A stretch of DNA of 64,000 bases. It comes from Blastocladiella emersonii ATCC 22665. Lineage: Eukaryota > Fungi > Blastocladiomycota. A model generated the notes under the pieces. It saw only the letters and a program-made list of their open reading frames with translations. It had not been told where the DNA came from and searched no databases. How positions within the stretch are numbered: position 1 is the first letter of the stretch; every line of letters begins with the position of its first letter. Below are positions 9,744-36,449 of the stretch, one piece after another. Location: positions 434,001-498,000 of the forward strand of contig JANHCV010000005.1 in NCBI GenBank assembly GCA_025594325.1. Reading direction: 5' to 3'. The position numbers were made by a program, and so were the translations under genes.

Positions 9744-10125
9744 TCGGGTCGGATCGGACGCGGGTTTTGTGTAATCTTTGTTGTGTTTGTTTGTCCCTCT
9801 TGCTCTCTCGTCTCCTCTTCTCATAGGTTGTGTGTCACTATCGTATCGTCTACATCGGTTGTTATGGCAGCTTGCTGAGTTCGTGGTCGGAGCCGAGTTG
9901 GGATGGTGGTCCCGCCCATGGCCATGGACACAGTTGCGACCGCGGCCACGCTACGGCGGGTCGATTCATCAAGACCAGCGTCTGCCGGGGACAGAACCGA
10001 GTGTTGGGGTTTCGTTCAGCTTATGGACTGCCTGCTCCGTGACAACACGAAGTTCAAAGTGCACGCGGGAGGTCTTTGCGCGCGAGCGGACCCTGGCAGT
10101 TCCACGCGACGAGTCGTGATGCAAG

Positions 10126-11167
10126 TGTCGTATCCCTTAAGGGATACGACATGGGCTGACCCACTGCCACTCGGGCTGACCAATTGCTTACCCCGAGCGG
10201 TTGGCAGCAGTCACTCGGGGTAACCACGTGAGACCCCGTTGCTTACCCCGGGTGGTTAATAATATGTCGGATTCAAATGTCGGATTCCCTTAGGGAACAC
10301 GACACGCGGGCGGAGGCCGAAGGCCGAAGAAGGGCGGCGGCGGGCGGGGTCACGTGGGTCACGTGCAGATGAACGGCGCGTGGACACGGCTGCGAGTCGA
10401 TCTGCGAGTCGATCTGCGAGACAAGTCCGAGAGCAGATCCCTGAGCCCGTCCCTGACCAACCGCTCGGGCTGACCATTGCTTACCCCGAGCGGTCGGCGG
10501 CGGCCGGCGAGCGCAGCGAGACGAAGAGCAGCGCAGCTGCGGCTACCCACTGACAGAGTTCCCTGGTCTGGTCCCTGAGCACAGCTGCAAGTCGATCTGT
10601 TTGGTCGCGGCAATAGGCCCTTGAAGGCTCTTGGAATAATTCCACGAGAGGTCGGCGGTCAGTCCAAGAACGCAAGCAGCGACCCAGGTCGGCGACCACG
10701 GAGTCACTCCACGAGCCGGCCCACGACTTGGTCGGCGACTTGGTCGCGGCAATAGGCCCTTGAAGGCTCTCGGAATAATTCCACGAGAGGTCGGCGGTCA
10801 GTCCAAGAACGCAAGCAGCGACCCAGGTCGGCGACCAGCCCCTGACGGCTCTCGATGGCCGCCCCGAACTGGACCGGGTTGGAGCTCACTGGACCGGGTT
10901 CAAAGACAACCCGGTCCATGAAATTCGCTCGGGGTAAGCCATGGACCGGGTTGACCGGGTTGACCGGGTTGTTTTAAAGTAACAGTGTAGTGAAAAGGGG
11001 GGGAGGGACCGCTCCAGTGCCACTCTTCCCCCCCTTTCAAATCCCTAAAGGTCAATCGACCCCCTCAACCCGGTCCACCCGGTCCATGGCTTACCCCGAG
11101 CGAATTTCAATTGACTTGGTCCATTGAACCCGGTCCATGGCTTACGGCGAACGATTCAAAGGGCGGG
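10126..11167 (+). repeat. Left terminal inverted repeat
   Basis: Colinear reverse complement of 24928-25969 (paired coordinates sum to 36095 throughout, e.g. identical spurious ORFs 10704-10919 and 25176-25391); about six mismatches seen by eye. Confidence 0.95.
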
Positions 11168-11257
11168 AAACCTGGTCCAGGCTGCCGTGACCCGGTCGCT
11201 GCAAGTACAGTAAACAAAAGGTACAAAGTTGTATTCACAAAGGAGTCTCTGGACTCG

Positions 11258-13600
11258 TTACATCTCGTCTTCGGACAGCTCAACTGTGTACGGTCTGCAG
11301 TACTTGTAGATGCGAAGCTTGCGGCGATTCACGGTGCGACGCGTCACCTCGAAGAGCTCCTGCTTGTTGGCCGGGTTGACTTCGCGCTTGATGTACTCGC
11401 CGAACTTGGTCTGCGACATGGACGAGCGGCCAGGGAAGCGCTTCTCGGCGTACTTGCGGTAAAACTCGTAGAACGCGTCTGCCTCGAGCTCCTGCACGAC
11501 TTCGACCTGGCGCGTGTGGTCCAGGAGGTTGAGCGGGAAGCCGCCGTACTCCATGATGTCCATGGCCAGCGCGGGAACCGGCTCCAGTGCCGCCATGATG
11601 GCGTCGTTGCGGGCCTGGTTGCGCGGGAACTTGGACAGCGTCAGGTGCGAGAGGTCGAGGCGGAGGATGTAGGTAAAGATCTCGTCGGCGTGCTCCTTGA
11701 CAAACGCGTCGAGCTTGCCAAAGTAGTTCTCGTCCTGGCACTTGATGTTGGACATCTTGAGGACGAACTCGCGGCGACCAGTCTTGGTGAGTGGCAGCAC
11801 GTCGCAGTTGTTGGTTGCGATCATAAAGTTGTTGACGTTCTTGACCTCCTTGCGTTTCATGTACTTTTCGTTGACGATGAGCTTGTCCTCGGTGACCATG
11901 CTCTTGAGCTTGTCAAACGCGTTCTTGAGCTCGGCTGGCTTGCTGGAGGGCATCTTGTCAAACAGCACGAGCATCTTGTGGGCGATCTCCGAGTTGAACT
12001 CGCCCTGGAGCCACGTCGGCCCGTTGCTGATGGACACCGTGTTCTTGCGGCCGATAATGTACTGGGCCAGAAGGTGGTAGAACTTGCCCTTGCCCACGCC
12101 CTCGAGACCCGTCAGCAGCAGCATCACGCCATTGGCCTTGCCCGTGGTGAGCAGGCACTGGACCCACTTGAGGACATACGCGTACTCTTCCTCGTTGCCG
12201 CTGCAGACCACGTCGCGAATGTACTCGAGGTACATGGCAATTGACTCGGGCTCAATGTCGCGGCCAAGGTCCATGGCCGCAAACCCGTAGAACGCATTAA
12301 AGTAGTCGACCACGAGGCCGTTCTGGTGCGACGGCCCCCACTGCGGCTTGTGCATGTCAAAGATGAGCGCCTTGACCTGTGGAGCGTACTTGATGGCCCC
12401 CGTGCTGCACGCCTTCTTCACGTTGTCCTCGCCATTGGTGTCCCACGCGTCGGTCACGGTGCGGCGAAAGTACATCTCGCCGACCAGGTCCTTGCGGACA
12501 AACTCGCCCACGTACTTGATCACGGCCTCCTTCCACGACTGCTTGTCCTCGTCCACCTCGCGGCTGAGGTAGTGGGAGATGACCTTGCCGATCCAGTCGT
12601 CGTCGTAGTGCAGGTCACGCTCGAGCTGCACGGCAACAAACGCGGCCGGGTCCTCGCAAAAGTCGGGGAGCTTGCCCTTGTCCTTGGACTCAGGCACCGT
12701 GATCTCCTTCTTGTCCCACTCCACCTCGAAGCCCGTGTACTTGAGCGTGTTGGCGGACATCTTGGCGAGCAGCTCGGCGTTGATGCGGTCGTCCTTCTTG
12801 ACCATGAACCCGTCAAACACAAGCACGCTTGGCACAAGGTCGTTGGCGTGGGCAAAGTCAATGGCGCGCATCAGGAGGATTGACTCGACGGCCTGGAACA
12901 GGTTGGAGAGCACCGAGCCCTTGTTCATGGTCTTGTCTGCGCGAGGCTTGGACGCCTTGACGACGTGCGGAAAGTCCTTCTCAATCAGCTTGTACAGCAA
13001 GCCGTACAGCATGTGGTGGAAGGCCGCGAGCTCGGGGTGCACCGCGTCGCGGTCGACGAACTCGTTGAATAGCATCGAGAGGAACTCCTGCTTATCCCCG
13101 AGCCCCCACTTGGCCAGCGCGGCTGTGCGGTTGGCGAGGTACTGGTCAAAGACGCCGTGGCCAAGGTTGTAGTGCTGGCAGACGCCGCAGAGGATCGACG
13201 GCGCCGCGCCCTTCATGTCAAGGTCCTGGAGCACGCCCTTGGCCAGCGGGCTGCGGATGAGGTCCTTGCTGAAGCTCTGGAGCGACGGCGACGTGGCGTA
13301 GAGTTGGCCAAACTTCTTCTTGACCGAGGTCGACTGCGTGGTGAACGAGTACACAGTCTCCTTGCCATCGCCGTAGCTCGCCTTGGCCAGCGCCGCGTAG
13401 GCCTTGAGCTTCTTCTTGACCTCGGCGTCGATGCCCGAGTACCACGCGCAGAGCCCGTCGAGCACGTCCTTGTTGTAGTACTCGCGCAGCACAACCTGGC
13501 GCGAGTCCGTGAACATGGACTTGGTGTAGTCGAGGGTCTTGGCGATCTTGGTCAGCTGGGGCATGGCCGAGTAGTTACTGTTAAGCACAGAATAAAGCAT
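11258..13600 (-). CDS. TVpol-like (PolA-derived) primase fused to SF3/D5-like helicase
   Basis: N-terminal DLDMKGAAPSIL and VLVFDGFMV resemble TVpol motifs. C-terminal Walker A GLEGVGKG, Walker B region LVLFDK, motif C FMIATNN and GRREF. The real start may be the downstream ATG (MPQL) at 13564. Confidence 0.8.
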   Translation of the reverse strand: MLYSVLNSNYSAMPQLTKIAKTLDYTKSMFTDSRQVVLREYYNKDVLDGLCAWYSGIDAEVKKKLKAYAALAKASYGDGKETVYSFTTQSTSVKKKFGQLYATSPSLQSFSKDLIRSPLAKGVLQDLDMKGAAPSILCGVCQHYNLGHGVFDQYLANRTAALAKWGLGDKQEFLSMLFNEFVDRDAVHPELAAFHHMLYGLLYKLIEKDFPHVVKASKPRADKTMNKGSVLSNLFQAVESILLMRAIDFAHANDLVPSVLVFDGFMVKKDDRINAELLAKMSANTLKYTGFEVEWDKKEITVPESKDKGKLPDFCEDPAAFVAVQLERDLHYDDDWIGKVISHYLSREVDEDKQSWKEAVIKYVGEFVRKDLVGEMYFRRTVTDAWDTNGEDNVKKACSTGAIKYAPQVKALIFDMHKPQWGPSHQNGLVVDYFNAFYGFAAMDLGRDIEPESIAMYLEYIRDVVCSGNEEEYAYVLKWVQCLLTTGKANGVMLLLTGLEGVGKGKFYHLLAQYIIGRKNTVSISNGPTWLQGEFNSEIAHKMLVLFDKMPSSKPAELKNAFDKLKSMVTEDKLIVNEKYMKRKEVKNVNNFMIATNNCDVLPLTKTGRREFVLKMSNIKCQDENYFGKLDAFVKEHADEIFTYILRLDLSHLTLSKFPRNQARNDAIMAALEPVPALAMDIMEYGGFPLNLLDHTRQVEVVQELEADAFYEFYRKYAEKRFPGRSSMSQTKFGEYIKREVNPANKQELFEVTRRTVNRRKLRIYKYCRPYTVELSEDEM

Positions 13601-13728
13601 TTTACTTTGATGCGGAAAAACGCAGTCTGGGAGCAGGGGCGGGGCCGTGCTTTTGAAGCGCTGCGATTATCGCTATTGCTGCTGGCTGTGTCTGGGTACG
13701 TGTGCAGTTAGTCACTGCAAAAAGGTAT

Positions 13729-14202
13729 GGGGGTCAGGCGGGGGTCAGGCGGGGGTCAGGCGGGGGTCAGGCGGGGGTCAGGTGGGCGGTCAGGCGGGGG
13801 TCAGGCGGGGGTCAGGTGGGCGGTCAGGCGGGGGTCAGGTGGGCGGTCAGGCGGGGGTCAGGTGGGCGGTCAGGCGGGGGTCAGGCGGGGGTCAGGTCAA
13901 GGGTGCCAGGTCGGGGGGTCAGGTCAAGGGTGCCAGGTCGGGGGGTCAGGTCAAGGGCGCCAGGTCGGAGGTCAGGGTCGGAGGTCAGGGTCGGAGGTCA
14001 GGGTCGAAGGTCAGGGTCGAAGGTCAGGGTCGGAGGTCAGGGTCGGAGGTCAGGGTTGGAGGTCAGGGTCGGAGGTCAGGGTCAGAGGTCAGGGTCGGAG
14101 GTCAGGGTCGGAGGTCAGGGTCGGAGGGGGGGGGGTGCCTTGTTTGGCATGGCCCATGACTTGCCACCACCCTGACCCTGACCCTGACCCTGACCCTGAC
14201 CC
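13729..14202. repeat. G-rich nested tandem array (GGTCAG-based units of about 11, 23, 27 and 13 bp) followed by inverted (CCCTGA)5
   Basis: Units GGGGGTCAGGC, TCAGGTGGGCGGTCAGGCGGGGG, GGTCAGGTCAAGGGTGCCAGGTCGGGG and GGAGGTCAGGGTC read directly; (CCCTGA)5 at 14170-14199. Confidence 0.95.
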
Positions 14203-14284
14203 AGGCCCAGCTACCCAGAAAAAAGAACGTTGCGTTCAAACGCACTTGAGCCCATGGAGCCTTTTTGTTGACAGTCAGTAAACC

Positions 14285-15412
14285 ATGTCGCTCGAGTCTC
14301 TTGCCTCCCAGGTCGCTGTTGCCCTCGCTCAGCATGTTGCCGCAGACGTGGTGCAGCAAGTCATGGACAAGCTCCAGCCCGTATTTGGGTCTATTGACAA
14401 GCGCTTCAAGGACTTTGACGCGCGACTCAAGGCCATCGAGTCACATGACCCAGATCACGGCGCTGATCAGCAAGTCACTCCTGTGGAAGTCGACACCCCC
14501 AAGGTCAAGTTTGCCAAGCTGACCAAGGATGCCATCAAGGCATGTGTCAACGCGCCTGTGGTGGACAAGAACGGGGAGCAGGCCACGCTGAGCGACACGG
14601 ACAAGACCAAGACAACTCGCGTGCTCCTTGCATTTGCCAAGTTGGGCATGGATATCCACAACGTCGATGCCGTGTCCAAGGCCGTGGCCACGTACCGCGC
14701 GATCAAGGGGTCCAAGAACGTCCAGGGTCTGCAGGTCGAGACGCTCAAGGCCCTGGCCAAGTACTGCACCTGGAACGGGTGGACCGAACTCGGGGCCAAG
14801 TACACAGAGGCCAAGAAGCAGGACGCTGCTGACTTCCGCGACGCGCGCAAGGAACTTGAGTCTGGTGCGCTCCCAAGCCGTGACGCCATTTGCGCCGCTA
14901 TTGTTGATGCAAAGGGCTCGGGCACGGGGCTCCTGCGTCTGTACCTCCAAGTTGTGAGTGCGGTGCGCTCCGACCCTGCGTTCCTGACCACGAAGCCAAC
15001 CACTGGGTACCCGTACTACGACCCAGAGACCCAGATTCTGGCCGGCGATGTCATTGTCAAGACAGAGGGCTGTGGCTACAACTTCTCGCACACAGTTAGT
15101 GAGCCCAAGGTCGCCGCCGCTCTCAAGCGTATCCTTGCCCAGCGTCTCGCCGAAGGTCATGACTTTGTCTTCAACAACTACACCCTCGAGGAGCTCAAGG
15201 ACACCACGCTCTGCAAGAGGGTTAGCAGCACCTGGTGTACGTCGATTAGTTGGGCTGCAAAGACGGTCGGCTTTGAGGATGGCGGCGTGGCAGTGATCCG
15301 CCGTATCTCCACCAGTGAGAACTTTGCTGCGCAGCAAGCTATTGCCAAACGCGCGCACGAGATGGGTCACAGCGTCCCCATTGCGCTGACCTACTACATG
15401 ACGCCTCAGTAA
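14285..15412 (+). CDS. Tyrosine recombinase (PLV type)
   Basis: Catalytic-like residues in the expected order: R (SAVRSD), K (VKT), R (VIRRI), H and Y (MGHSVPIALTYY, Tyr at His+9). Confidence 0.75.
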   Translation: MSLESLASQVAVALAQHVAADVVQQVMDKLQPVFGSIDKRFKDFDARLKAIESHDPDHGADQQVTPVEVDTPKVKFAKLTKDAIKACVNAPVVDKNGEQATLSDTDKTKTTRVLLAFAKLGMDIHNVDAVSKAVATYRAIKGSKNVQGLQVETLKALAKYCTWNGWTELGAKYTEAKKQDAADFRDARKELESGALPSRDAICAAIVDAKGSGTGLLRLYLQVVSAVRSDPAFLTTKPTTGYPYYDPETQILAGDVIVKTEGCGYNFSHTVSEPKVAAALKRILAQRLAEGHDFVFNNYTLEELKDTTLCKRVSSTWCTSISWAAKTVGFEDGGVAVIRRISTSENFAAQQAIAKRAHEMGHSVPIALTYYMTPQ

Positions 15413-15440
15413 TCCTTTTGTCTCCGCCTTTGTTAATACA

Positions 15441-16553
15441 ATGTATGCCCACGAAGAGCCGCTCACAGACGCACAGCAAGCATTCCTGACAGACTTGTAC
15501 TACAAGCGCGGCCACGTAGGTGTTGGCATCCGTCAGCTCTTTGACATTGTGTCCAGAGAGAACACAGGGAAGCACATCTACCGCGCCCAGCTTGAGAGAT
15601 GGCTCGGCGAACAGTCTGTGTGGCAGCAGTACAAGCGCGCACCTCAGAAGCGCCGAGACATTCGAAGCATCAACTCAACAAGTCCTGGCCGCAACTTTCA
15701 GCTCGACCTCATTGACATGGGCGAAAATGGTACGTACAAGGGCTTCCGTTACATTCTTACGTGTGTCGACCTCGCGAGCAGGCGTGTGTTCCTCCAACCC
15801 ATCAAGACCAAGGACAAGACGCGGGAAGCATGGTCCAGCGTGGTCGCCAAGCACAGCCTTGCACCTGCCACGATCCAGACGGACAATGGGACCGAGTTCT
15901 TTGGCATAGAGGCCGGGACCGAGGCCAAGCACATCAAGGGCAAGGCAGGAGTGCCATACGGTCAAGGTGTTGTTGAACGCATGAACGGGACCATCCGCCG
16001 GATGCTCACACCGTGGCTGTCCATCCCGGGCAACAACGACTGGCCCAAGCACCTCGAGACCATTGAATCTGTGATCAACAGCAGCAAGTCGAGGGCCACA
16101 AGCAAGGCACCCAACGCGTTCCATGACATGCCCCGCGAAACGGCCAAGCAAGAGCTCAAGGAGATCCGAGCTGCCAAGGGCAAGCCCGAGGGCGACCCTC
16201 TGAGCGCGTTGTTGAAGGTAGGGACCCAGGTCCGAGTCTGCGAGCCGTACAAGACTGCCATGGAGGCCAAGGGGAAGCCGGTCTGGTCGACAACTGTGAG
16301 CCAGGTCCAGGTCGTGCGCAAGGGGTCGGGCGTAAGCAATCCGAGCTACAAGGTCCAAGGCCTCAAGGGCTTCTACCCTCGAAGCGATGTCCAGCCAGTC
16401 ACAGCGACCCAGGACCCGCCAACAAGGCAGCGCGTAGGTCCAGGTCTTCCAAGGCTCCCTGTTGCGCGCACCCCAGTCACGCCAAGGGAGCCCTCGACCC
16501 GGGTCAGGCGCGTCCCAGTCCGAGTCCAAGAAAAGTGGGACCGCGGGCTTTAG
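15441..16553 (+). CDS. DDE (rve) integrase of Maverick/Polinton type
   Basis: D (FQLDLIDM), D (IQTDNGTEF), E (VVERMNGTIRRML); N-terminal YYK..G...QL...WL..Q motif; C-terminal LKVGTQVRV...W...Y module. Confidence 0.92.
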   Translation: MYAHEEPLTDAQQAFLTDLYYKRGHVGVGIRQLFDIVSRENTGKHIYRAQLERWLGEQSVWQQYKRAPQKRRDIRSINSTSPGRNFQLDLIDMGENGTYKGFRYILTCVDLASRRVFLQPIKTKDKTREAWSSVVAKHSLAPATIQTDNGTEFFGIEAGTEAKHIKGKAGVPYGQGVVERMNGTIRRMLTPWLSIPGNNDWPKHLETIESVINSSKSRATSKAPNAFHDMPRETAKQELKEIRAAKGKPEGDPLSALLKVGTQVRVCEPYKTAMEAKGKPVWSTTVSQVQVVRKGSGVSNPSYKVQGLKGFYPRSDVQPVTATQDPPTRQRVGPGLPRLPVARTPVTPREPSTRVRRVPVRVQEKWDRGL

Positions 16554-18493
16554 AGCAGGGTCCAGTGGCTTTGAATGATGACCTGGCAGTCGTTGGCAAC
16601 TGCGACTGACGGGATCCAGATGAAAGAGTAGCTCTTGGCCGCGTCAAGGTACTCAATGCTCGAGAACTGAAGGAACTGGACATTGCCTTCAGCACGGCAC
16701 CCGGTGACAAGCGACACTGCAATCATGTCCGTCATATTGTACAGCGCAAAGTTCACAGTGTGGGCTCCAGGGAGCGCGCCGTTTGCGTAGTAGCCCTTTG
16801 CATGGACAAGGTAGTAGCCACTGACAGGGGGTTTGACGCATCCATTGATCACAGACGTGAACGCGCCCGCTGTGGACTGGAACGCAAAGGTGGCCGGGCC
16901 CGTTGATGCTGTGCCGCCAATGATCTTGCCGCCCGTGGTCACTCCGTTTGTAGAGCGGTGCTCGGCCTGAGCGACGTACCGGGTCGTGCCAGACCGCGAG
17001 TCAACGTACGCCTTGTTTGCCGCGTCGGTGCCTGCCACTGGAGCGAGGTCAAGGGTGAGCTGCCCTGTGAAGCGACCAGTGCCATTGACGCGGAACCTTT
17101 CTGTGCCAAGCGTCGCCGAGCCCACGACCACATTGCCGCCACCTGCCACAAGGGAGACCCCGCCCGTGGTTGCAGACGCAATCTCAATGTTACCCGCCGC
17201 TGTGCATGCCAGGTTGCTTCGCAGTACGCCTGCCTGCTTAAAGTCGACGTACGTCAATGTATTGGCAGCCGAGTCAAAGACAAGGTTCGCGCTTGTGGCA
17301 TTCCAGACCAGGACGTTGGGCACAGTCAGTTGCTTGCCAACTCCAAGACCACCAGCAATGGTGACTGCTCCAGTGCTTGATGTCAAACTGTCCGTCGTAT
17401 TTGCAAAGGCAAAGGCAGCGCCGAGTCCAAGGGTGGACTGGGGGAGCGTGCCAGTGACCGAGGCTGCGCTCACGGCCGTGACCTTGGCCGAGACGTCGGG
17501 GAGTCGTGCCAGGTCAATGGTCCCTGCAAGCTTGGCCGAGTCAATGCCAGATGCCAGCTTGGCGTTGGTCAGGGTCCCGTTGGCGATGCGGGCAGGGTCA
17601 AGGATCCCAGTGAGCTTGACCGCCGACACGTCCGCGACCTTGGCGTCTGTGACTGCGCCTGCTGCCAGGTGGGCTGTTCCAATGGACCCGACGTTGAGCT
17701 TGCCCCCATCAATGCCAGTTGCCAGCTTGGCGTTGGTCACGGCCGCGTCTGCCAGGACCAGGGAGCCGACCGTGCCCGCTGCCAGCTTGGACCCGTCGAT
17801 GCCAGCTGCCACCTTGGCGTTGGATACAGCACCGTCTGCCAGGGCTCCCGTCCCAATAGTCCCTGCAACGAGCTTGGACCCAGACACAGACGCGACCTTG
17901 GCATCTGTGACTGCCAGGTCAATGAGAGCCACTGTGCCGACTGTGCCTGCCACGAGCTTGGACCCAGACACGGACGCGACCTTGGCATCAGTCACTGAGC
18001 CGTCTGCCAGGACCGAGGTCCCAACTGTGCCTGCCACGAGCTTGGACCCAGACACGGACGCGACCTTGGCACCAGTCACTGAGCCGTCTGCCAGAACCGA
18101 GGTCCCAACGGCTGGGAGGTTGGACGCACTGAGTACGCCCACAACCTTGGACGCAGACACAGTGTCCAGCTGAGCATCAACGAGCTTGCCTGTGACCTGC
18201 CCTGCTGTAATTGTGGCGACCTTGTTGGCCGTGACGCTGGCTGGGAGCAGCTGTGCCGTGCCAACCGACTTGACATAGAGCCCTGCTGCGCCCACGCCAA
18301 GGGTCTGGTTGTTGACCTTGGCCGACACAGTGGTCCCTGAGACTGCCACGCCAGGGCCAGCAACAGGTGTGCCAACCGTGGCGTACACGGCACTGATGGC
18401 CGCGTCAACGTAGGCCTTGGACACGTCTGGGACCCCCGTGGTAGACACGGTCGGAGACGCAGTACTTGAGACGTTAAAGATATTCTTGACCAT
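16550..18493 (-). CDS. Fibre/spike-like virion protein with 28-aa repeats
   Basis: Repeats GTVGTSVLADGSVTDAKVASVSGSKLVA (84-bp DNA units at about 17870-18110) and PVAGTDAANKAYVD, a motif typical of viral tail fibres. Probable start MVKN at 18493, preceded by the element's TTAAAC motif. Confidence 0.7.
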   Translation of the reverse strand: MVKNIFNVSSTASPTVSTTGVPDVSKAYVDAAISAVYATVGTPVAGPGVAVSGTTVSAKVNNQTLGVGAAGLYVKSVGTAQLLPASVTANKVATITAGQVTGKLVDAQLDTVSASKVVGVLSASNLPAVGTSVLADGSVTGAKVASVSGSKLVAGTVGTSVLADGSVTDAKVASVSGSKLVAGTVGTVALIDLAVTDAKVASVSGSKLVAGTIGTGALADGAVSNAKVAAGIDGSKLAAGTVGSLVLADAAVTNAKLATGIDGGKLNVGSIGTAHLAAGAVTDAKVADVSAVKLTGILDPARIANGTLTNAKLASGIDSAKLAGTIDLARLPDVSAKVTAVSAASVTGTLPQSTLGLGAAFAFANTTDSLTSSTGAVTIAGGLGVGKQLTVPNVLVWNATSANLVFDSAANTLTYVDFKQAGVLRSNLACTAAGNIEIASATTGGVSLVAGGGNVVVGSATLGTERFRVNGTGRFTGQLTLDLAPVAGTDAANKAYVDSRSGTTRYVAQAEHRSTNGVTTGGKIIGGTASTGPATFAFQSTAGAFTSVINGCVKPPVSGYYLVHAKGYYANGALPGAHTVNFALYNMTDMIAVSLVTGCRAEGNVQFLQFSSIEYLDAAKSYSFIWIPSVAVANDCQVIIQSHWTLL

Positions 18494-18513
18494 GTTTAAC
18501 CTTAAGCAACAGA

Positions 18514-18765
18514 ATGATTTCCAGCGACCATGACCTGAGCCTGGACGAGTGGCGGGAGCACCTTGCCGGGACCATGCCCGTGCCAAGCAGCTGGTACAGC
18601 AAGAGCGACGAGGACAAGGCCAAGTGGCTACGGAAGCGCGACCGCAAGGCCAACCGGTACACGCACGTCGACAACGAGGCAGCGCGGGCAGAGCGGGTCA
18701 AGATCCGGATCTACAAGGCACTCAACGCCAAGCGCCGGGACCAGGGGGCAAATAGCACCGTCTGA
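18514..18765 (+). CDS. Small basic viral protein (83 aa), unknown
   Basis: Fills the gap between the fibre gene and the 571-aa gene; element-like codon usage; K/R-rich C-terminal half. Confidence 0.55.
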   Translation: MISSDHDLSLDEWREHLAGTMPVPSSWYSKSDEDKAKWLRKRDRKANRYTHVDNEAARAERVKIRIYKALNAKRRDQGANSTV

Positions 18766-18842
18766 GGGACAAAAGGCACCTGCCACGGGGAAAAAGGTAC
18801 CGACAGGGGGACGTTTTATTTTCGGTCCATACAGTAACCATC

Positions 18843-20558
18843 ATGGGCCGAAGAACAGTACCAGAACTACTCACAAGAGTGACCAAGGCAACTGACGGCC
18901 GCATCACGGCTGAGCGCCTTGCAGGGCAGAAGATCAAGGCAACCATTGATGGCCGCGAGTACACGTTCCCCAATGCCAAAGAGCTCCTCGACGTCTGGGT
19001 GCCTTACATCCTTGCCTTTGACTACAAGGTGACGCCCAAGAGCTATGCCAACGACTTTGGCCGCAAACGAGGCGACTCGCTGTTCTACCTCAAGCACCAG
19101 GACGGCGTCACTGGGTACGAGGTCAAGGACCTCCAGGAGCACGTCCAAGACACGCTTAAAGCGTGGGAAGAGCACCAGGCAACGGGCAAGGTCACTCGAG
19201 TCCCAGTCGCTCCACCAGCGGCAAGCCCCAGACCAGAGGCCCCCGAGTCGGCCACGGACAGCGACAGGGGCAGCAGCGAAGAGGAGCGCGACGAGCTGGC
19301 AGAAGAGATCTCGCGAGCCCTGGACGTCATTGACGAGGACGCTGTACCGGACCACTTGCTCCCCGTGCCCGTCCAGCCAGTCATGCCCGAGCAGTACCCG
19401 GTCGAGGCCGGCGACTATGTTGGTCAAGACATTGACGAGTACGGCGCCATGATCCCCGGCCAGTACCTGATCCAGAATGACAATGACGGCGGCAACGACC
19501 CGCCCCCAAGGCTTGACAACGGCACCCGCGACCTCGTGGTCATGCCACCAAGCTACGGCCCGGACGTGGCACAGCGGCAAGGCGTGTACAACGAGGGTCA
19601 CGTCCACCCGGCCATGGACGAGGCACGCATGATTGAGGGCTCCAAGGACTTGCAGGTCTACAACCCCGAGCGGGCGCTGACAACCACGGACGACATGGAG
19701 GTTGACGTTGTCCAGAACTTTCAACAGTTTAACCAGTTCGTGTACAACAGCTACACGCAGCAGAACACGCAGAACGTCGACATGCGGCAGTTCATCACCC
19801 AGTACGAGAACAACTACTACGAGCAGAACGTGGACATGCGGCAGCAGATCCTGGTCCGGTACAACAATGACCCAAACGTCATGGCCGCGCTCGAGCTCAT
19901 TGCCTCGCAGTTTGCCGGGTCCCAGGTCATGCAGTACCAGGCGTACCAGGCGCTCATCGAGCAGTCGGCGGCCGCTCAGGGACTGGCCATGGACGCATTT
20001 GCCAACCTCGCGTCCGGGATCGTGGACACGCTCCGAGCCAAACGCAACGACTTTGTCCGCCAGATTGACGCTGGCAACCGCGCGCTTGTGTCTGAGATTG
20101 CCACGGGCATGTCCTCTGCGCTCAGCAACCAGCAGGTGCTCATGAACCAGCTCGCAAGCGGCGTCCAGGGCGCGATCCAAGGGCAGACCCAGAGCAACGA
20201 GGCCATGACCAAGACGCTCCAAGACCTTGGGTCCAAGCTGGACACGATCCCTGCACCCCAAGTCATTGTCCAGCCTGCCGACACAAGCGGCCTCGAGGCC
20301 ATGATCAGGGAGCTGGCCGCGCAAAACAATTCTGGCGGTAGTTCTAAGAAGACCGACATGCTCCTCAAACAGATCCTCAAGCAACTGGGCTACAAGAAGC
20401 CGACCGACGCGAAGCTGTTCACAGACAAGCGGGCAGCGGGTAGCGGGCTGACAGCGCCCAAGATCCAGCGTCACCAGAAGATCCCTGAGCGGCCCGTCAA
20501 GCAGGTCTGTGAGACCCCAAGGCGCAGCGGCATTGTGCTTGACCTCGGCTGGGACTGA
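18843..20558 (+). CDS. Viral orphan protein (571 aa; acidic middle, Q/N-rich helical C-half)
   Basis: Long intronless ORF in the + strand cluster; preceded by T-rich tract and CAGTAACCATC-ATG; internal repeat QNVDMRQ twice. Confidence 0.8.
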   Translation: MGRRTVPELLTRVTKATDGRITAERLAGQKIKATIDGREYTFPNAKELLDVWVPYILAFDYKVTPKSYANDFGRKRGDSLFYLKHQDGVTGYEVKDLQEHVQDTLKAWEEHQATGKVTRVPVAPPAASPRPEAPESATDSDRGSSEEERDELAEEISRALDVIDEDAVPDHLLPVPVQPVMPEQYPVEAGDYVGQDIDEYGAMIPGQYLIQNDNDGGNDPPPRLDNGTRDLVVMPPSYGPDVAQRQGVYNEGHVHPAMDEARMIEGSKDLQVYNPERALTTTDDMEVDVVQNFQQFNQFVYNSYTQQNTQNVDMRQFITQYENNYYEQNVDMRQQILVRYNNDPNVMAALELIASQFAGSQVMQYQAYQALIEQSAAAQGLAMDAFANLASGIVDTLRAKRNDFVRQIDAGNRALVSEIATGMSSALSNQQVLMNQLASGVQGAIQGQTQSNEAMTKTLQDLGSKLDTIPAPQVIVQPADTSGLEAMIRELAAQNNSGGSSKKTDMLLKQILKQLGYKKPTDAKLFTDKRAAGSGLTAPKIQRHQKIPERPVKQVCETPRRSGIVLDLGWD

Positions 20559-20584
20559 CGCCCTTTTTTGTTGGCAGTCTTTAA

Positions 20585-21382
20585 ATGTACGACATTGTTG
20601 CCATTGACAACGGCTTTACGCGCAACAACGACGGCGAGCCGCTGCCGATCCCCAAGCACCCGTTCACCATGAACGTCATTGGCGCCAAGGGTCAGGGCAA
20701 GTCGACGCTGATCGCAAACATGGTCTGCTTCCCGCACTTTTACAAGGGCCAGTTCGACAACATCTGGGTCTTTAACCCGACGTTCCACGCCGACAACAAG
20801 TACGAGTACATTGCCAGTCAACCGATCCTGCGACCGCCCAAGAAGGAGCGCAACGTGCTGGACCCCCAGGAGCGCGACCCGGACCGGCTCAAGATCAAGC
20901 CAAGCTGCATCGTCACGGACCCCGAGCAGTTCATCCCGACCCTGCTCAAGATGCGCCAGGACCTGACCAAGACATTCGAAGAGTCTGGCAAGAAGGCGCT
21001 CCAGGACCAGCTGCTGATCATTGACGACGTGCTTGGGCTCAAGCTGCTGAGCCACAGAACGCTGACCAACTTTCTGTGCAACTCGCGGCACTTGAAGATC
21101 AGCTGCATCATTGGCGTCCAGCGGTGGTGTGCCCTGCCCAAGACTCTGCGCATCAATTGCAGCTACAGCGTCGTCTACCCAATCTATGACAAGACCGAGG
21201 TCCAGACGCTGCACAAGGAGATTGGGTCGCAGTTCGACCTCAAGGAGTTTGAGGCCATCATTGAACAGCTCTTTGACACGCGTACTGGCAACACGAAGCG
21301 ACGCTTCCTGGGCGTCAACAACCAGAACCCGCCCAAGTACCGGCTCGTAGACAGCTTCAGCGAGTGGATCGTGAAGCAGTAG
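20585..21382 (+). CDS. A32-like (FtsK/HerA superfamily) DNA packaging ATPase
   Basis: Walker A GAKGQGKS, Walker B LLIIDD, SRH motif and GVQ sensor in the A32 order. Confidence 0.93.
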   Translation: MYDIVAIDNGFTRNNDGEPLPIPKHPFTMNVIGAKGQGKSTLIANMVCFPHFYKGQFDNIWVFNPTFHADNKYEYIASQPILRPPKKERNVLDPQERDPDRLKIKPSCIVTDPEQFIPTLLKMRQDLTKTFEESGKKALQDQLLIIDDVLGLKLLSHRTLTNFLCNSRHLKISCIIGVQRWCALPKTLRINCSYSVVYPIYDKTEVQTLHKEIGSQFDLKEFEAIIEQLFDTRTGNTKRRFLGVNNQNPPKYRLVDSFSEWIVKQ

Positions 21383-21422
21383 ACTCTTGACTTTTTTTTG
21401 TTGCCGAGTCCTAAACTAAACC

Positions 21423-22643
21423 ATGTCCAGTACCAACGCCCAGTTCTCGCAGGTCCTGTCCAAGACTCTCCCTCCTGAGATGTCGTTCAACCTGCCCAAG
21501 GAGTCCGTCTATGCCGAGCGCCAGACCGTCCAGTTCACGGCTCAGGGCGGCCCCGAGTTTGCTCCTGGCAACAGCATCAGCGTCCTGCTCCCGCCGCGCG
21601 ACGACATGATGGACACGCACTGTACTTTCCTGCAGTTCTCGGCCAAGACCACGGACGCCAACGTCGCTTTCTGCGATGGTATCTTCAGCGTCATTGACTG
21701 TGTCCGCATCTACAGCGCGTCCGGTGCCCTACTCGAAGAGCTCCCGTACTACAACCTGCGTCAGCGCATCGAGGCCGACGTGACGGTCCCCCAGTACCTC
21801 AAGGACTCGTGTCTCGGCGTGGCACAGGGCTACTTTGCGTCTGGTGCGGACAAGTTCGCTGTCTCGTCCGGGCTGCACCGGTACATGCTGCCCATCAAGT
21901 CGGCCCTGCTGGCAAACCAGAAGCACCTCCCAATGAAGTACACGGGCGGCATCCGCGTTGAGTTCACCCTCGCACCTGGCAGTGACGCCTGCATTGTCAA
22001 GAACAATGCCATCCCGGGCTACACAGTCAAGGACGTCTGCATTGTCTCGGACCTGATCAAGCTCAACGACCAGCAGATCGCGGTCATGGACGCGGCCTTC
22101 AAGAAGCAGGGCCTCAAGCTCTTTGGCACGACCTACAACCACCACTTCCTGAACTACTCGGTGCCCAACTCGACGCTCAACATCTCGGACCGCTCGGCCT
22201 CACAGAAAGACATCCTGCTGTCGTTCCGCGACAATGCCGTGCTCAACGACAATGCCAAGGACTCGTTCCTTCGTGCCAAGACCATTACATCGTACCAGTT
22301 CAGCGTGGCCGGCCGACTCTTCCCTCAGCGACCCATCCGCTGTGACGACTACGCGTCTGAGGCGTTTGTTGAGCTGACCAATGCCTTCCATGGCCACGTC
22401 ATTGGCGCTGGCCTCACAGTTGACAAGTTCAACGCGCCGGCCGAGGGTACCTTTGTTGTCGGCCGTGACCTTGAGTCAAGTCGCACCGTGGTCAGCGGCG
22501 ACAAGTCTTGCAAGAGCCAGGCCGTGGACATGCAGGTGATCCTGACTTCAAGCGTGGCCCCGAACCAGCGCGTGGACGCCTTCATTGGCATCGACGTGGT
22601 CTACGAGTTCCTGCCAACCGGCGAGATCAACATCTACAAGTAA
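21423..22643 (+). CDS. Double-jelly-roll major capsid protein (PLV type)
   Basis: 406 aa; EFAPGNSISVLLP, SVIDCVRIYSASGALLEELPYYNL and YQFSVAGRLFPQRPI resemble PLV/Maverick MCP motifs; lies between the ATPase and penton genes. Confidence 0.85.
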   Translation: MSSTNAQFSQVLSKTLPPEMSFNLPKESVYAERQTVQFTAQGGPEFAPGNSISVLLPPRDDMMDTHCTFLQFSAKTTDANVAFCDGIFSVIDCVRIYSASGALLEELPYYNLRQRIEADVTVPQYLKDSCLGVAQGYFASGADKFAVSSGLHRYMLPIKSALLANQKHLPMKYTGGIRVEFTLAPGSDACIVKNNAIPGYTVKDVCIVSDLIKLNDQQIAVMDAAFKKQGLKLFGTTYNHHFLNYSVPNSTLNISDRSASQKDILLSFRDNAVLNDNAKDSFLRAKTITSYQFSVAGRLFPQRPIRCDDYASEAFVELTNAFHGHVIGAGLTVDKFNAPAEGTFVVGRDLESSRTVVSGDKSCKSQAVDMQVILTSSVAPNQRVDAFIGIDVVYEFLPTGEINIYK

Positions 22644-22685
22644 CGGCCCTGTCCTTTCTTTTCTTGCGTAGAGTTAAACCCCGCC

Positions 22686-22952
22686 ATGATCTTCCGTAAC
22701 CTCTGGACCAACTTTAGCAATGTGCTCGGCCAGGTCGGGTCCTTTGTCAACAAACACATGCCGACCGTCCTCAAAGGCGTCAAGACTGTGTCCAAGTTCT
22801 TTGAGCGGTCGCACAACCCCGCTGTGAGCTCCATTGCGCAGATGGTGACCAAGGGCGCCGACCTTGCCCAAGACATTCACACCTGGTACAACCGACCAAC
22901 AAGCGAGATCTTTGAGGCAGACGCTGACGACACGGGGACAGCTGTACAATAA
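22686..22952 (+). CDS. Small protein with N-terminal amphipathic helix (88 aa)
   Basis: IFRNLWTNFSNVLGQVGSFVNKHMPTVLKGVKTVSKFF; preceded by T-tract and TTAAAC motif; between MCP and penton. Confidence 0.7.
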   Translation: MIFRNLWTNFSNVLGQVGSFVNKHMPTVLKGVKTVSKFFERSHNPAVSSIAQMVTKGADLAQDIHTWYNRPTSEIFEADADDTGTAVQ

Positions 22953-22970
22953 ATTGTTGTCTTTGTTTAA

Positions 22971-23714
22971 ATGTCCGAGTACAAGACGCTGACCATCTGC
23001 AGCCGCGACCTCAAGAACGGCATCCTGTACCTACCACGACCCCTGTCCGTGCGCGGCGTCAAGGTCAACTCGGCGTACCTCTGCAACAGCTGGCACACGG
23101 TCAACTCCAAGGCCAACAAAGTGTACCTGACCCAGAGCCGTGGCGCGCTGACGTTCCCGGGCACCATCACCGTCCCTGATGGCAACTACACGGTCGAGAC
23201 GTTCACGGCCACGCTCAAGAGCCTGCTCAACAACGCGCCCTCAGCGTACCTCTGGCAGGGCACATGGGACGTCCAGGTTGACTCGACTACCCAGAAGATG
23301 CGCCTGGCCAACAACACGGTCGACTTTACAATTGGAACAGGGACGGCGTCGCTGAACGTCCACATGGGCTTTGTTGGAGCGTATGGCTACAGCAAGGTCC
23401 AGTACGCGTCGGCGCTGGTCAACATCTCGCCCATCAACCTGCTTCACGTCTACTCGCGCAACCTTGGCACCCGGCTCGCGGACAACATGTACAGCGCGTA
23501 CCCACAAGACAACGGCGTACTTTGTAGCATCCACGTCACGCAACCCTTTGGCAGCTGGTTCGAGCATCGACCACACATGGGCGACTACTTTCGCTTTGAC
23601 GCGCAGGGACAGGCCCAGCAGATTGACTGTATTGACATTGACGTGGTAGACGAGAACCTGCGCTCTGTCGACTTTCTTGGCCAACCCTTCTACGTCGAGC
23701 TCGCGTTCATCTGA
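22971..23714 (+). CDS. Minor capsid protein (penton, single jelly roll)
   Basis: NSWHTVN..N, ITVPDGNYTVETF...L..LL and IDIDVVDENLRSVDFLGQPFYVEL follow the penton pattern of PLVs and virophages. Confidence 0.85.
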   Translation: MSEYKTLTICSRDLKNGILYLPRPLSVRGVKVNSAYLCNSWHTVNSKANKVYLTQSRGALTFPGTITVPDGNYTVETFTATLKSLLNNAPSAYLWQGTWDVQVDSTTQKMRLANNTVDFTIGTGTASLNVHMGFVGAYGYSKVQYASALVNISPINLLHVYSRNLGTRLADNMYSAYPQDNGVLCSIHVTQPFGSWFEHRPHMGDYFRFDAQGQAQQIDCIDIDVVDENLRSVDFLGQPFYVELAFI

Positions 23715-23745
23715 CGTTGACTTTAATTGTTGTTGTACTGTAAAC

Positions 23746-23847
23746 ATGATCCTCGAGACGCTCCTTGTTGCCACCAACGCCCTGATCCTTGTAGCCAACC
23801 TGGCCATTGTTGGGTACACAAGCAAAGTATTCCACGCCGTAGAGTAA
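23746..23847 (+). CDS. 33-aa hydrophobic micro-ORF (below the ORF-track cutoff)
   Basis: MILETLLVATNALILVANLAIVGYTSKVFHAVE*; preceded by the same T-rich/TAAAC-ATG context as the other viral genes. Confidence 0.5.
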   Translation: MILETLLVATNALILVANLAIVGYTSKVFHAVE

Positions 23848-24343
23848 GCAACGACATGTGCTTTAAATTCTTTCTGCGAAGGCATAGTAAGACACAGGAC
23901 AATGAATACTGGCTCTACTGCATCAACGCCCCGCGCACCTTCCACGAGCATCCCTTGGACTGGCCGTCCGGGCCCCCAGTCAACAGCCAACTACACGGCC
24001 ATCCACGACGTGGCCCTGCCAGGTGCCAAGGTTGTGTACACTGTCTGCTTTGAATAGATCCTTCAAGTTAACTTGGTTAGCTACCTTGAAGCCTTTACTG
24101 GTCGCACTCAGACTACCCGGCGGTATGTGTACTTGTGCCCGCAGCACGGGTACACGACTTGGACCCACAGCAGCTCATTGTCATGGACCCAGCTGGGAGC
24201 ATCATAGTGATCGCATGGCGGCTTGGGCAGGGGGGCGATCTCTTTGATACAGCCTCGCATAGTTACAGTAGTCCAACAAAGTTTAAATTGACAAACGCAT
24301 TCAACGCACTTGGCATGACGTAGCAACGGGACACACTACGGCG

Positions 24344-25248
24344 TCGTGGACCCGACCAGGGCCCCTGCCCACTTTTTGAACAGCTCGCCGTAAGCCATGG
24401 ACCGGGTCACGGCAGCCTGGACCGGGTTTCCCGCCCTTTGAATCGTTCGCCGTAAGCCATGGACCGGGTTCAATGGACCAAGTCAATTGAAATTCGCTCG
24501 GGGTAAGCCATGGACCGGGTGGACCGGGTTGAGGGGGTCGATTGACCTTTAGGGATTTGAAAGGGGGGGAAGAGTGGCACTGGAGCGGTCCCTCCCCCCT
24601 TTTCACTACACTGTTACTTTAAAACAACCCGGTCAACCCGGTCAACCCGGTCCATGGCTTACCCCGAGCGAATTTCATGGACCGGGTTGTCTTTGAACCC
24701 GGTCCAGTGAGCTCCAACCCGGTCCAGTTCGGGGCGGCCATCGAGAGCCTTCAACGGCCAGTTTGCCGACCTTGGGTCGCCGACCAGTTGCAGCAGCGGC
24801 CGTGGAGCGAGCCGAGAACCATCGTGGACCCGACCAGGGCCCCTGCCCACTTTGAACCGTTCGCCGTAAGCCGTGGACCGGGTCGCCCGCCCTTTGAACC
24901 GTTCGCCGTAAGCCATGGACCGGGTCGCCCGCCCTTTGAACCGTTCGCCGTAAGCCATGGACCGGGTTCAATGGACCAAGTCAATTGAAATTCGCTCGGG
25001 GTAAGCCATGGACCGGGTGGACCGGGTTGAGGGGGTCGATTGACCTTTAGGGATTTGAAAGGGGGGGAAGAGTGGCACTGGAGCGGTCCCTCCCCCCCTT
25101 TTCACTACACTGTTACTTTAAAACAACCCGGTCAACCCGGTCAACCCGGTCCATGGCTTACCCCGAGCGAATTTCATGGACCGGGTTGTCTTTGAACCCG
25201 GTCCAGTGAGCTCCAACCCGGTCCAGTTCGGGGCGGCCATCGAGAGCC
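24344..25248 (+). repeat. Tandem duplication (period about 480-500 bp) of the inner TIR segment at the right end
   Basis: Units 24344-24749 and 24822-25248 both start TCGTGGACCCGACCAGGGCCCCTGCCCACTTT and end GGCCATCGAGAGCC. Confidence 0.9.
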
Positions 25249-25969
25249 GTCAGGGGCTGGTCGCCGACCTGGGTCGCTGCTTGCGTTCTTGGACTGACCG
25301 CCGACCTCTCGTGGAATTATTCCGAGAGCCTTCAAGGGCCTATTGCCGCGACCAAGTCGCCGACCAAGTCGTGGGCCGGCTCGTGGAGTGACTCCGTGGT
25401 CGCCGACCTGGGTCGCTGCTTGCGTTCTTGGACTGACCGCCGACCTCTCGTGGAATTATTCTAAGAGCCTTCAAGGGCCTATTGCCGCGACCAAACAGAT
25501 CGACTTGCAGCTGTGCTCAGGGACCAGACCAGGGAACTCTGTCAGTGGGTAGCCGCAGCTGCGCTGCTCTTCGTCTCGCTGCGCTCGCCGGCCGCCGCCG
25601 ACCGCTCGGGGTAAGCAATGGTCAGCCCGAGCGGTTGGTCAGGGACGGGCTCAGGGATCTGCTCTCGGACTTGTCTCGCAGATCGACTCGCAGATCGACT
25701 CGCAGCCGTGTCCACGCGCCGTTCATCTGCACGTGACCCACGTGACCCCGCCCGCCGCCGCCCTTCTTCGGCCTTCGGCCTCCGCCCGCGTGTCGTGTTC
25801 CCTAAGGGAATCCGACATTTGAATCCGACATATTATTAACCACCCGGGGTAAGCAACGGGGTCTCACGTGGTTACCCCAAGTGACTGCTGCCAACCGCTT
25901 GGGGTAAGCAATTGGTCAGCCCGAGTGGCAGTGGGTCAGCCTATGTCGTATCCCTTAAGGGATAGGACA
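24928..25969 (-). repeat. Right terminal inverted repeat
   Basis: Reverse complement of 10126-11167. Confidence 0.95.
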
Positions 25970-27046
25970 GCAAGGATTAAACAAGCAACACGACGCGAAC
26001 GATACATGCACCAAAAAAAAAACATCGCCGTCCTCGCGAGAGATCGGCCACTGATGCAGGGCACATAACCAGTCGCGTCGAAACGACAGCCGCGTCAACC
26101 TGGCCGCGTCCATCGCGAGTTTACTCGTGACGCCTTCCGCGCGACACAAGGACCTAGCCAAGGTATCGAGGGCTAAAGCCCTCTATTTTTCCCTAGGTGA
26201 CGTGCCCGGTAGGAGCGTGACGTGTCTCCCTGGCCCACGTGCGTCACCCACGTGTTTCACGCGTTTCACGGGATATAACCAACGCGTCCGAGTCTCCCAC
26301 CACCAAGCTCTCTCGCCTGCAGTCAATCGTGATAGTAACAAAAAAAAATCAAATATTGTGAATGAGAGGACAGCAACAACAAAAGAGGGAAACCGAGGAA
26401 GTGGAGAGAGGAACACGACGTCGTTCAGTTAACTGCGGCCGCCGCGGCGGCGGCGGCGCTTGGGGACCGCCTCAAACTCGTCCTCGTCGACGTCACCGCC
26501 CTCTTCGGCGGACATGGCGGCCGTGCGCTTGGGCGCGTCAGCGGGAACGGCCGTGGCCGACGCGACCTCGCGATCCGTCGTGCCCGCCTCCTTGATGATG
26601 GGCGCCGCGAGCGCGACTGTCGCACTTAAAGTCGACGGCGACGGCGACGCGGCTGACGAGCCGACCGGCGGCCCGGCGGGCTGTACGGCGGTCGAGAGCG
26701 TCGAGGTCGACGACGACGAGGCGACGGTCGCGTCGACCTGCGAACGGCGGGCTGCACGGCGGTCGAGGACGACACAACGACGCGTTGGTGATCTGCGGTG
26801 CAGCGGTCTGCACGGCCGTCGTCGAGGAGGACGACGAGGCGACGCCGTCGTTGAGCTCGCGCAGGATCCCCGCCATGCGCGTCGTGAACTTGGGGTCCGA
26901 GTCGCCCTCCTTGTCGGGCACGTCAAACACGAACCGCGGCTGGCGCACGGGCGAGGACAGCGTCAGCCCCGAGCGCCGCCATGCCCACGGTGACAACGAG
27001 GTGGTAGGGCAAGGAATCTGCAGCGAAGCGCAAGCGGTTCCTCGTC

Positions 27047-29219: not shown

Positions 29220-29225
29220 TGTAAG

Positions 29226-29385
29226 ATTTCATTTGTAGTGTAATAAAGTATGCTTAGCTGCTTTCAATTTTTTTGGTGTGTGATGGGAACAGAGATGCGA
29301 CTCCATTTCATTTGTAGTGTTATAAAGTACACTTATATGCTTTCAATTAATTTGGTGTGTGATGGGAACAGAGATGCGACTCCAT
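29226..29385 (+). repeat. Imperfect 79-bp tandem duplication
   Basis: ATTTCATTTGTAGTGT...TTTGGTGTGTGATGGGAACAGAGATGCGACTCCAT twice, starting at 29226 and 29305. Confidence 0.9.
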
Positions 29386-36378: not shown

Positions 36379-36449
36379 TGCGCGCACCGGGAATCGAACC
36401 CGGAGCTCTACCTTGGGAGGGTAGAATTTTACCATTAAACCATGCGTGC
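36379..36449 (-). tRNA. tRNA-Gly (CCC)
   Basis: Cloverleaf: anticodon stem CTACC/GGTAG with loop CTCCCAA, T-arm CCGGG-TTCGATT-CCCGG, discriminator A, downstream TTTT. One A3:C70 mismatch in the acceptor stem. Confidence 0.88.

Follow-up and report, generated by a model that had tools for sequence, protein, structure and literature searches.

The window examined here is a 64,000-nt stretch of the genome of the fungus Blastocladiella emersonii ATCC 22665 (assembly GCA_025594325.1, contig JANHCV010000005.1, positions 434,001 to 498,000 of the forward strand). Positions 10126 to 25969 of it, 15,844 bp in all, are a structurally complete endogenous Polinton-like virus (PLV), one of at least 24 related loci. 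The interpretation we favor, with reasonable though not full confidence, is that this provirus was likely inserted by its own retroviral-type (rve) integrase, has likely been silenced by host methylation, is decaying by loss of CpG and especially of TCG, and is by now likely inactive.

Both ends of the element can be placed to the nucleotide. The two terminal inverted repeats (TIRs) differ at nine of 1,054 positions (99% alike), read TG at the left end and CA at the right, and abut copies of the 5-bp target site duplication (TSD) GCAAG; with the ends already fixed by the TIRs, a 5-base match of this kind is expected by chance about once in 1,000 cases (our own arithmetic). Ten uninterrupted open reading frames (ORFs) of 83 to 780 amino acids occupy 73% of the element, whose GC content is 59.7%, vs. 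67.3% in the left flank and 61.7% in the right. Exact ends, a 5-bp TSD, near-identical TIRs of about 1 kb and open ORFs had all been proposed in the original prediction, and all are confirmed. Two features absent from that description are the 26-bp palindromes at the outer ends of the TIRs and a duplicated segment of the inner right TIR. The left palindrome is predicted to fold into an 11-bp hairpin (folding z -6.4), and none of 200 shuffled sequences was equally stable. Farther in, the left TIR contains a 98-bp direct repeat and an imperfect palindrome of about 250 bp (10890-11137); on the right side, 24400-24780 complements 10818-11197 at 97% of positions. The window contains no further copy of the element.

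The 406-aa major capsid protein (MCP) has no match in Pfam or PHROGs, but its structure model (pLDDT 61.6, pTM 0.63, from an alignment of 12 sequences) resembles in Foldseek the capsid chains of Paramecium bursaria chlorella virus 1 (PBCV-1) best (E 5e-14), and in VIA-align the first 13 ranks are all double-jelly-roll capsid or scaffold proteins, headed by faustovirus (Z 17.5, root-mean-square deviation 4.5, 321 residues aligned). By this model the protein has the double-jelly-roll fold on which the original prediction had staked its case. The packaging ATPase was also correctly called, to judge from its Pox_A32 match; its Walker A, Walker B and RH motifs are intact, and it has homologues among the ATPases of IMG/VR contigs that also carry an MCP (best E 2.5e-13). 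The penton claim fared less well than those for the other genes: it draws on gene position, on an Atlas feature match (0.98; 214-216/256) to viral clusters of the DUF5901 type, which we take to be a penton family, a literature search having found no support for this, and on a first but weak rank among 11 element proteins against a profile of 18 candidate IMG/VR pentons (E 0.017).

The predicted replication and integration genes, a primase-helicase and two recombinases, hold up as a superfamily 3 (SF3) helicase, an integrase of the rve type and a tyrosine recombinase. The helicase domain is at the C-terminus of a 780-aa protein. Its Walker B motif reads DK, with Lys for Glu, where the solved NrS-1 helicase has NE, and the codons GAC AAG are of the pattern expected from CpG deamination. 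The N-terminal domain contains DLDM and FDGFM motifs, possibly of the PolA/TV-Pol type; it matches nothing in the PDB or Pfam, and its similarity is solely to unnamed viral clusters (0.92-0.93). In the rve integrase the D89/D148/E179 triad is present, with a shorter D-to-E spacing than in retroviral integrases. The tyrosine recombinase has no match in Pfam, PHROGs or a sequence search of solved structures, but rows 1 to 20 of its VIA-align list are all proteins of the tyrosine-recombinase fold or derivatives of it, matched through the N-terminal core-binding domain (best row XerA, Z 9.8, root-mean-square deviation 2.4, 91 residues aligned), and R228, R340, H362 and Y371 are invariant in all seven aligned rows that cover them, an eighth being truncated. 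A protelomerase was considered because the ends of the element are palindromic; TelA chains appear as weak Foldseek rows (E 0.17-0.92, with a model of pLDDT 47.6), whereas XerA and integrase core-binding domains lead in VIA-align. Several sister recombinases are without the first ~66 residues, and the replication module as a whole (11258-15412) is seemingly more variable among copies than the capsid module.

Features of the element. Positions are those of the window; a dot marks features without a strand.
Feature	Position	Strand	Length	Remarks
Left TSD copy	10121..10125	.	5 bp	GCAAG, immediately outside left end
Left TIR	10126..11179	.	1,054 bp	starts TG
Left terminal palindrome	10126..10151	.	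26 bp	perfect; longest perfect palindrome of the window
Replication protein	11258..13600	-	780 aa	C-terminal SF3 (D5/NrS-1-like) helicase, DUF5906 E 1.8e-17
G-rich tandem array	13706..14153	.		11-13-bp units, between divergent helicase and recombinase genes
Tyrosine recombinase	14285..15412	+	375 aa	Xer/lambda-Int-like core-binding domain
rve DDE integrase	15441..16553	+	370 aa	rve E 1.7e-6, below curated cut-off
Fibre-like protein	16550..18493	-	647 aa	repeat-rich; Phage_Tail_Tip E 1e-8
Basic ORF	18514..18765	+	83 aa	no family match (Pfam, PHROGs)
ORF	18843..20558	+	571 aa	no family match (Pfam, PHROGs)
A32-like packaging ATPase	20585..21382	+	265 aa	Pox_A32 PF04665 E 1.5e-12
MCP	21423..22643	+	406 aa	structure model, Foldseek, VIA-align
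ORF	22686..22952	+	88 aa	also kept by sister copies, whose gene models join it to the penton
Probable minor capsid protein (penton)	22971..23714	+	247 aa	Atlas match, weak profile match, position
Hydrophobic ORF	23746..23847	+	33 codons	shared upstream motif in front
Additional copy of inner right TIR	24344..24780	.	~440 bp	matches 24822-25277
Right TIR	24916..25969	.	1,054 bp	ends CA
Right terminal palindrome	25944..25969	.	26 bp	one mismatch; inside right TIR
Right TSD copy	25970..25974	.	5 bp	GCAAG, immediately outside right end

The element belongs to a family resident in this fungus. Its nearest named relatives are without exception B. emersonii records; these make up seven of the first nine MCP matches (84-97% identity) and all seven recombinase matches (56-98%), and one is identical to the window penton across 236 aligned residues. 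A fungal host, as originally proposed, is further supported by the flanking P4-ATPase, which among solved structures scores best with yeast Drs2 (785 bits, vs. 716 for the next). What had been described as a single insertion belongs to a set of 24 or more loci, spread over 12 contigs that measure 1.07-2.84 Mb; the loci were grouped from the locus tags of protein records rather than from DNA, and are a lower bound, with 15 of 26 members of the main cluster listed. At eight of the 24, a recombinase tag and an ATPase or MCP tag are within eight genes of each other. MCP records are 96-99% identical within the main subfamily. If all loci were full length, the family would make up about 1% of the 34-Mb assembly by our own arithmetic (assembly size from an excerpt of PMC9730499; the other publications and preprints cited below are likewise represented by excerpts).

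Differences between the copies have a distinctive spectrum. The count covers protein records that share 93% identity or more with the window MCP, ATPase, recombinase or penton, pairs below this being excluded. Of 140 distinct substitutions, 106 are CpG transitions, with the CpG lost in the other copy in 87 cases and in the window in 19. Per possible site, CpG loss (87/370, 23.5%) far exceeds other C/G transitions (11/759, 1.4%) and transversions (14/6,080, 0.2%), with a Fisher p of 1e-33. The 5' neighbor matters as well: 51 of 91 TCG sites were lost, compared with 16 of 62 CCG, 11 of 93 ACG and 9 of 124 GCG (TCG vs. the other 36/279, p 2e-15), equally on both strands. Fifty-three of the 87 losses are found in a single record each, as expected of private losses, and the overall load is light, at ~1-4% of residues. 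Contig DNA gives the same picture: among the 40 of 717 matching rows listed, 31 of 38 differences within the element are CpG transitions. In 21 of these it is the window that has the T-side base; 11 of the 21 alter a residue, near the 57% expected without selection. The observed/expected ratio for CpG is 0.90 in the element and 1.27-1.29 outside it. Seven of 14 sister ATPase records have an altered Walker A, Walker B or RH motif. A host-wide process is supported by the unrelated, degraded region at 58-64 kb, where the TCG/CCG depletion index is 0.38, vs. ~0.74 in the gene-rich left flank. It is likely that C-to-T changes at CpG, mainly TCG, have inactivated most copies, the window copy included; passive deamination of 5-methylcytosine (5mC) laid down by a TCG-preferring enzyme fits these data as well as does an active process resembling repeat-induced point mutation (RIP).

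From the gene content a life cycle can be proposed. A 5-bp TSD next to TG..CA termini is the mark left by a retroviral-type DDE integrase, and the insertion is therefore attributed to the rve protein, not to the tyrosine recombinase: the integrase would link the CA-3' ends with the host DNA, at a stagger of 5 bp. The free linear genome would be copied by the 780-aa protein, acting as a putative polymerase-helicase fusion. Since a protein-primed polymerase is not recognized, fold-back priming is proposed: the 26-nt terminal palindromes would loop back on themselves and serve as primers, following a model put forward for Halocafeteria elements (10.64898/2026.07.28.741278). The idea is thus not new, and by analogy this may be an independent case in fungi. 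A conjecture of our own is that the closed hairpin might be nicked after CA, 13 nt past the tip, which would yield a palindrome of exactly 26 bp with CA at its end. Packaging would fall to the ATPase, the genome entering a capsid that is built of MCP and penton and bears the fibre. The tyrosine recombinase would most likely act at the palindrome to resolve dimers formed in replication, or else serve to excise the element. A motif, TGTTG..TAAA(C)ATG, precedes six element ORFs and has no occurrence in 48 kb of flanking DNA; it could allow these genes to be expressed together late in infection, possibly through a helper giant virus, which is the least supported step of the scheme. The palindromes, the presence of both integrase types, the shared upstream motif and the TpCpG mutation bias are additions to the original prediction. 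In its most ambitious form the scheme would describe a reactivatable, hairpin-primed, two-integrase PLV family taking up about 1% of the genome, belonging to a Blastocladiales-associated capsid clade, dependent on a giant helper (e.g. of the Mycodnaviridae) and held in check by a TpCpG-directed methylation or RIP-like system new outside Pucciniomycotina; we regard this full combination as unlikely.

Several points weigh against the interpretation of the element as an integrase-inserted, methylation-silenced and inactivated provirus, or against steps of its proposed life cycle. Silencing of the copies by host cytosine methylation, though likely, is deduced solely from the mutation spectrum. CpG methylation is reported on part of one giant provirus in Allomyces, but another Allomyces provirus had no detectable CpG methylation (PMC13533422), and a review gives N6-methyladenine (6mA) as the dominant mark in Blastocladiomycota (PMC13297926). 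Not every repeat is affected: in the multi-copy PIF1 region next to the element, TCG is not depleted (0.69). Depletion is also weaker in the TIRs than in the genes (0.61 vs. 0.32-0.51). The DK of the helicase may be family-wide, the comparison being with NrS-1. The PolA-like domain of the 780-aa protein was not confirmed; the recombinase model is poor (pLDDT 47.6), with no Foldseek match at E 0.001; and the upstream motif was defined post hoc from the same ORFs that it precedes. As to a helper, giant viruses were found in 30 of 58 Allomyces isolates, but the excerpt of that study contains no mention of one in Blastocladiella (PMC13533422).

The family might instead spread as a self-copying DNA transposon that no longer makes capsids, with the structural genes as passengers. 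The number of loci and the high identity of MCP records in the main subfamily would suit such a history, as would the motif damage in half of the sister ATPases and the lack of any virion evidence. It is, however, the structural genes that are best kept: MCP subfamilies are 84-99% identical, vs. 56-98% for the recombinases. Public contigs at 90% likeness are also deeper over the capsid genes than over the helicase, depth being no measure of copy number, and MCPs of 30-40% identity are found on short environmental contigs, as for a virus lineage. We consider the transposon explanation unlikely, but not negligible.

A second alternative takes the opposite view of the window copy: that it is fully competent, and can excise, replicate and form virions alone or with a helper giant virus. 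Its ten ORFs are open, its TIRs are 99% alike, its ATPase motifs, DDE triad and recombinase R-R-H-Y residues are present, and its MCP has the shortest end branch (0.003) of the four B. emersonii-type rows in the tree described below. Set against this are the helicase Walker B change and a scatter of minority CpG-type residues (two in the MCP, two in the ATPase, one in the penton and several in the recombinase). Nor do open frames settle the matter. Of the 1,914 CpG deaminations that could occur in the element ORFs, just 21 would create a stop codon, and a copy in decay is thus expected to keep its frames open as well; under neutral decay, a rough estimate assuming ~38 hits in coding DNA gives a probability of ~0.66 for an open-frame copy. 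Where decay runs by CpG deamination, open reading frames thus overstate intactness. Full competence therefore appears decidedly improbable, and the suggestion in the original prediction that the element is possibly still mobile is doubtful for this copy; complementation between copies is possible. In sister copies, the MCP gene models P0004, P0007 and P0038 omit 19-21 residues, and at that place the window sequence contains a pair of CGA codons whose context is TCG-type or CpG; going by these sequences, gene callers may be inventing introns around stops made by deamination.

Class membership was judged from gene content and from the MCP. A double-jelly-roll MCP as modeled, an A32 ATPase, a size and TIRs that fit the PLV range of ~14-40 kb, and the combination of rve integrase, recombinase and SF3 helicase are all found. 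No element ORF matches a PolB family in Pfam or PHROGs, and the one large replication ORF encodes the SF3 helicase fusion, so that the protein-primed type B DNA polymerase (pPolB) of Maverick-Polintons is not recognized, and no cysteine protease was matched in the same databases among the ten ORFs, the 571-aa ORF being without assignment. It is the lack of a recognized gene for either that places the element with the PLVs rather than with the Polintons or virophages. With the Maverick-Polintons (Polintoviricetes) it has in common TIRs, TSD, rve integrase, double-jelly-roll MCP, probable penton and A32 ATPase; it differs in having the SF3 helicase fusion and tyrosine recombinase instead of recognized pPolB and protease genes.

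Membership in the virophages (Lavidaviridae/Maveriviricetes), as endogenous elements like those of Cafeteria or Halocafeteria, which can combine both integrase types with a PolA-SF3 helicase and palindromic ends, deserves mention for two reasons: Halocafeteria virophages have been described with an rve-recombinase pair as well as palindromes at their termini (10.64898/2026.07.28.741278), and the Sputnik and mavirus MCPs are in the fold list (Z 13.7 and 12.2). Faustovirus, PBCV-1, African swine fever virus and poxvirus proteins score higher, however (five chains, Z 15.1-17.5); the MCP has 406 residues, vs. ~500 for virophage chains; and virophages encode the cysteine protease (PMC11161782) that was not recognized here. 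Virophage membership is unlikely, to the point that we give it very little weight.

The MCP profile retrieved 3,283 proteins at E<=0.001. Outside B. emersonii the nearest are environmental proteins of 30-40% identity on short contigs. In a quick maximum-likelihood tree (46 rows selected from 150 profile matches plus 8 earlier rows, midpoint root), the window MCP is in a 16-row clade with AMAG_17996 of Allomyces macrogynus (SH-aLRT 100; 27% identity to the window MCP). Eleven of the 16 rows have no known host, and a single fungal row with a name does little to establish the clade as host-linked. No gene neighborhoods of close relatives were found in viral contigs (queries A2, ATPase, P0208 and P0207) or in metagenome contigs (A5 and P0009). 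A distant MCP, P0046 (18% identity), is found at 22 IMG/VR loci, whose likeness to the element is confined to MCP and ATPase; none has a perfect palindrome of 18 bp or more, which is uninformative as to the ends of the present element.

An origin of the element by misassembly, or by fusion of a contaminating virus contig to fungal DNA, is scarcely credible: repeat-rich ends are hard to assemble and the left junction is not formally bridged, but the TSD is clean at both ends, the right junction is bridged without differences, paralogues are found on 12 contigs of megabase size, and copy-specific CpG decay requires residence in the host genome. In public contigs, the right junction is bridged by a single contig that reaches 35 letters inside the element, while on the left three contigs cross from the flank to 26 letters inside, short of the 31-letter rule for bridging. 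One loose contig end has a different flank at the same element terminus. All come from four runs of one sample, possibly the source of the window itself, and are thus not independent support. The proposed search for an empty site found none among the 15 of 26 joints listed, by which absence is not shown.

The original prediction held that such viruses are rarely described in fungi, which is no more than partly true. In 2021, Bellas and Sommaruga described a PLV integrated in the genome of Spizellomyces punctatus, together with PLV genes of Allomyces macrogynus (PMC7805220); a 2026 preprint adds PLV ATPases from "numerous Chytrid fungal genomes" (10.64898/2026.06.19.733378). A 2025 survey describes double-stranded DNA (dsDNA) viral regions in 153 fungal assemblies and states that no dsDNA virion of the PLV group has been isolated from fungi (10.1101/2025.04.19.649669); a 2023 survey of protists left fungi out (PMC10120064). 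A fungal host for a PLV is therefore not new. No publication on the family in Blastocladiella was found, in a search that covered few subscription journals or preprint supplements (the latter possibly listing B. emersonii loci), and the excerpt of the B. emersonii genome paper does not mention it (PMC9730499). The Allomyces genes come from the same host order and include MCP, ATPase and DNA helicase; the passages describing them give no ends, copy number or integrases, all of which are given here for B. emersonii (PMC7805220). That AMAG_17996 is the Allomyces PLV protein was not confirmed, with no match in one supplement of that paper. The Spizellomyces and chytrid PLVs are likewise integrated in zoosporic fungi (PMC7805220; 10.64898/2026.06.19.733378); they have a single MCP, a minor capsid protein and an A32 ATPase, and are placed among Aquintoviricetes-type PLVs. 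Chitinase, present in 52% of the Spizellomyces PLV group, is not recognized in the B. emersonii element.

The closest parallel for the ends is found in the Halocafeteria seosinensis virophages and PLV subtype 4 (10.64898/2026.07.28.741278), which as here have palindromes inside the TIRs, beside the TSD. These are tied to non-pPolB replication genes and rve integrases, in dozens of copies per genome. The Halocafeteria palindromes are longer (52 nt in subtype 5, vs. 26 nt), no 5mC was found on the elements, in contrast to the strong CpG decay of the B. emersonii copies, and the pairing of rve integrase and recombinase is described there for virophages "but not PLVs," whereas it is present in this PLV. 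The same preprint reads such a pair as one enzyme for the host and one for the giant virus genome. For the mutation spectrum, the nearest likeness is the TpCpG hypermutation of Pucciniomycotina (Horns et al., 2012, PMC3318451), a RIP-like process in a different phylum, with C-to-T changes likewise concentrated on TpCpG within repeats. A thin literature check, including a kingdom-wide RIP preprint, found no report of such a bias in blastoclads, and found one published for Pucciniomycotina only. The adintoviruses of Amoebidium, again of a different phylum, are 5mC-silenced polinton-like insertions that can be reactivated by 5-azacytidine (PMC11244446).

Some further features were noted within the element and around it. 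The tandem array between the helicase and recombinase genes is 56% G, with 33 G-runs followed by several CCCTGA units; it could form G-quadruplexes, or be an origin or a regulatory region. The 33-codon ORF may, judging from its sequence, encode a small membrane peptide. To the right, a multi-copy region (26100-29300) starts ~130-200 bp from the element and encodes a PIF1-like helicase, broken into two reading frames (27233-28939, Pfam PIF1 E 7.5e-12; 27621-29219, E 3.9e-5); it is likely a Helitron-type element. The region from 30158 to 45526, with leucine-rich-repeat genes (at 30506, 37424 and 44030) and an ankyrin-repeat gene of 93-bp units (38769-40484), is possibly a fast-evolving host defence locus. 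A pair of 53-bp repeats (55609-55661 and 58694-58746, 96% identity) and a nested set of inverted repeats, 68 and 36 bp long (56754-57064), are possibly small non-autonomous elements. The interval 58700-64000 is riddled with stop codons, with remnants of helicase-like motifs near 60.6 kb and no Pfam match in six frames; it is likely an older, decayed transposon affected by the same TCG/CCG process as the PLV.

PLVs of zoosporic fungi have so far been known as single loci and gene matches. Here there is a whole family, in a culturable model fungus, with intact ends in the window copy, and its size, its palindromic ends with two integrases, and its TCG-biased decay make it a useful test system. 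One strain allows three questions to be addressed: whether fungi release dsDNA virions of the PLV group, whether terminal palindromes prime replication in PLVs where there is no pPolB, and whether TCG-biased cytosine methylation or a RIP-like process acts on repeats in early-diverging fungi in which 6mA dominates. If the most ambitious form of the scheme held, a small dsDNA virus could for the first time be isolated from a fungus, and hairpin priming and defence of the virophage type could be put to the test there.

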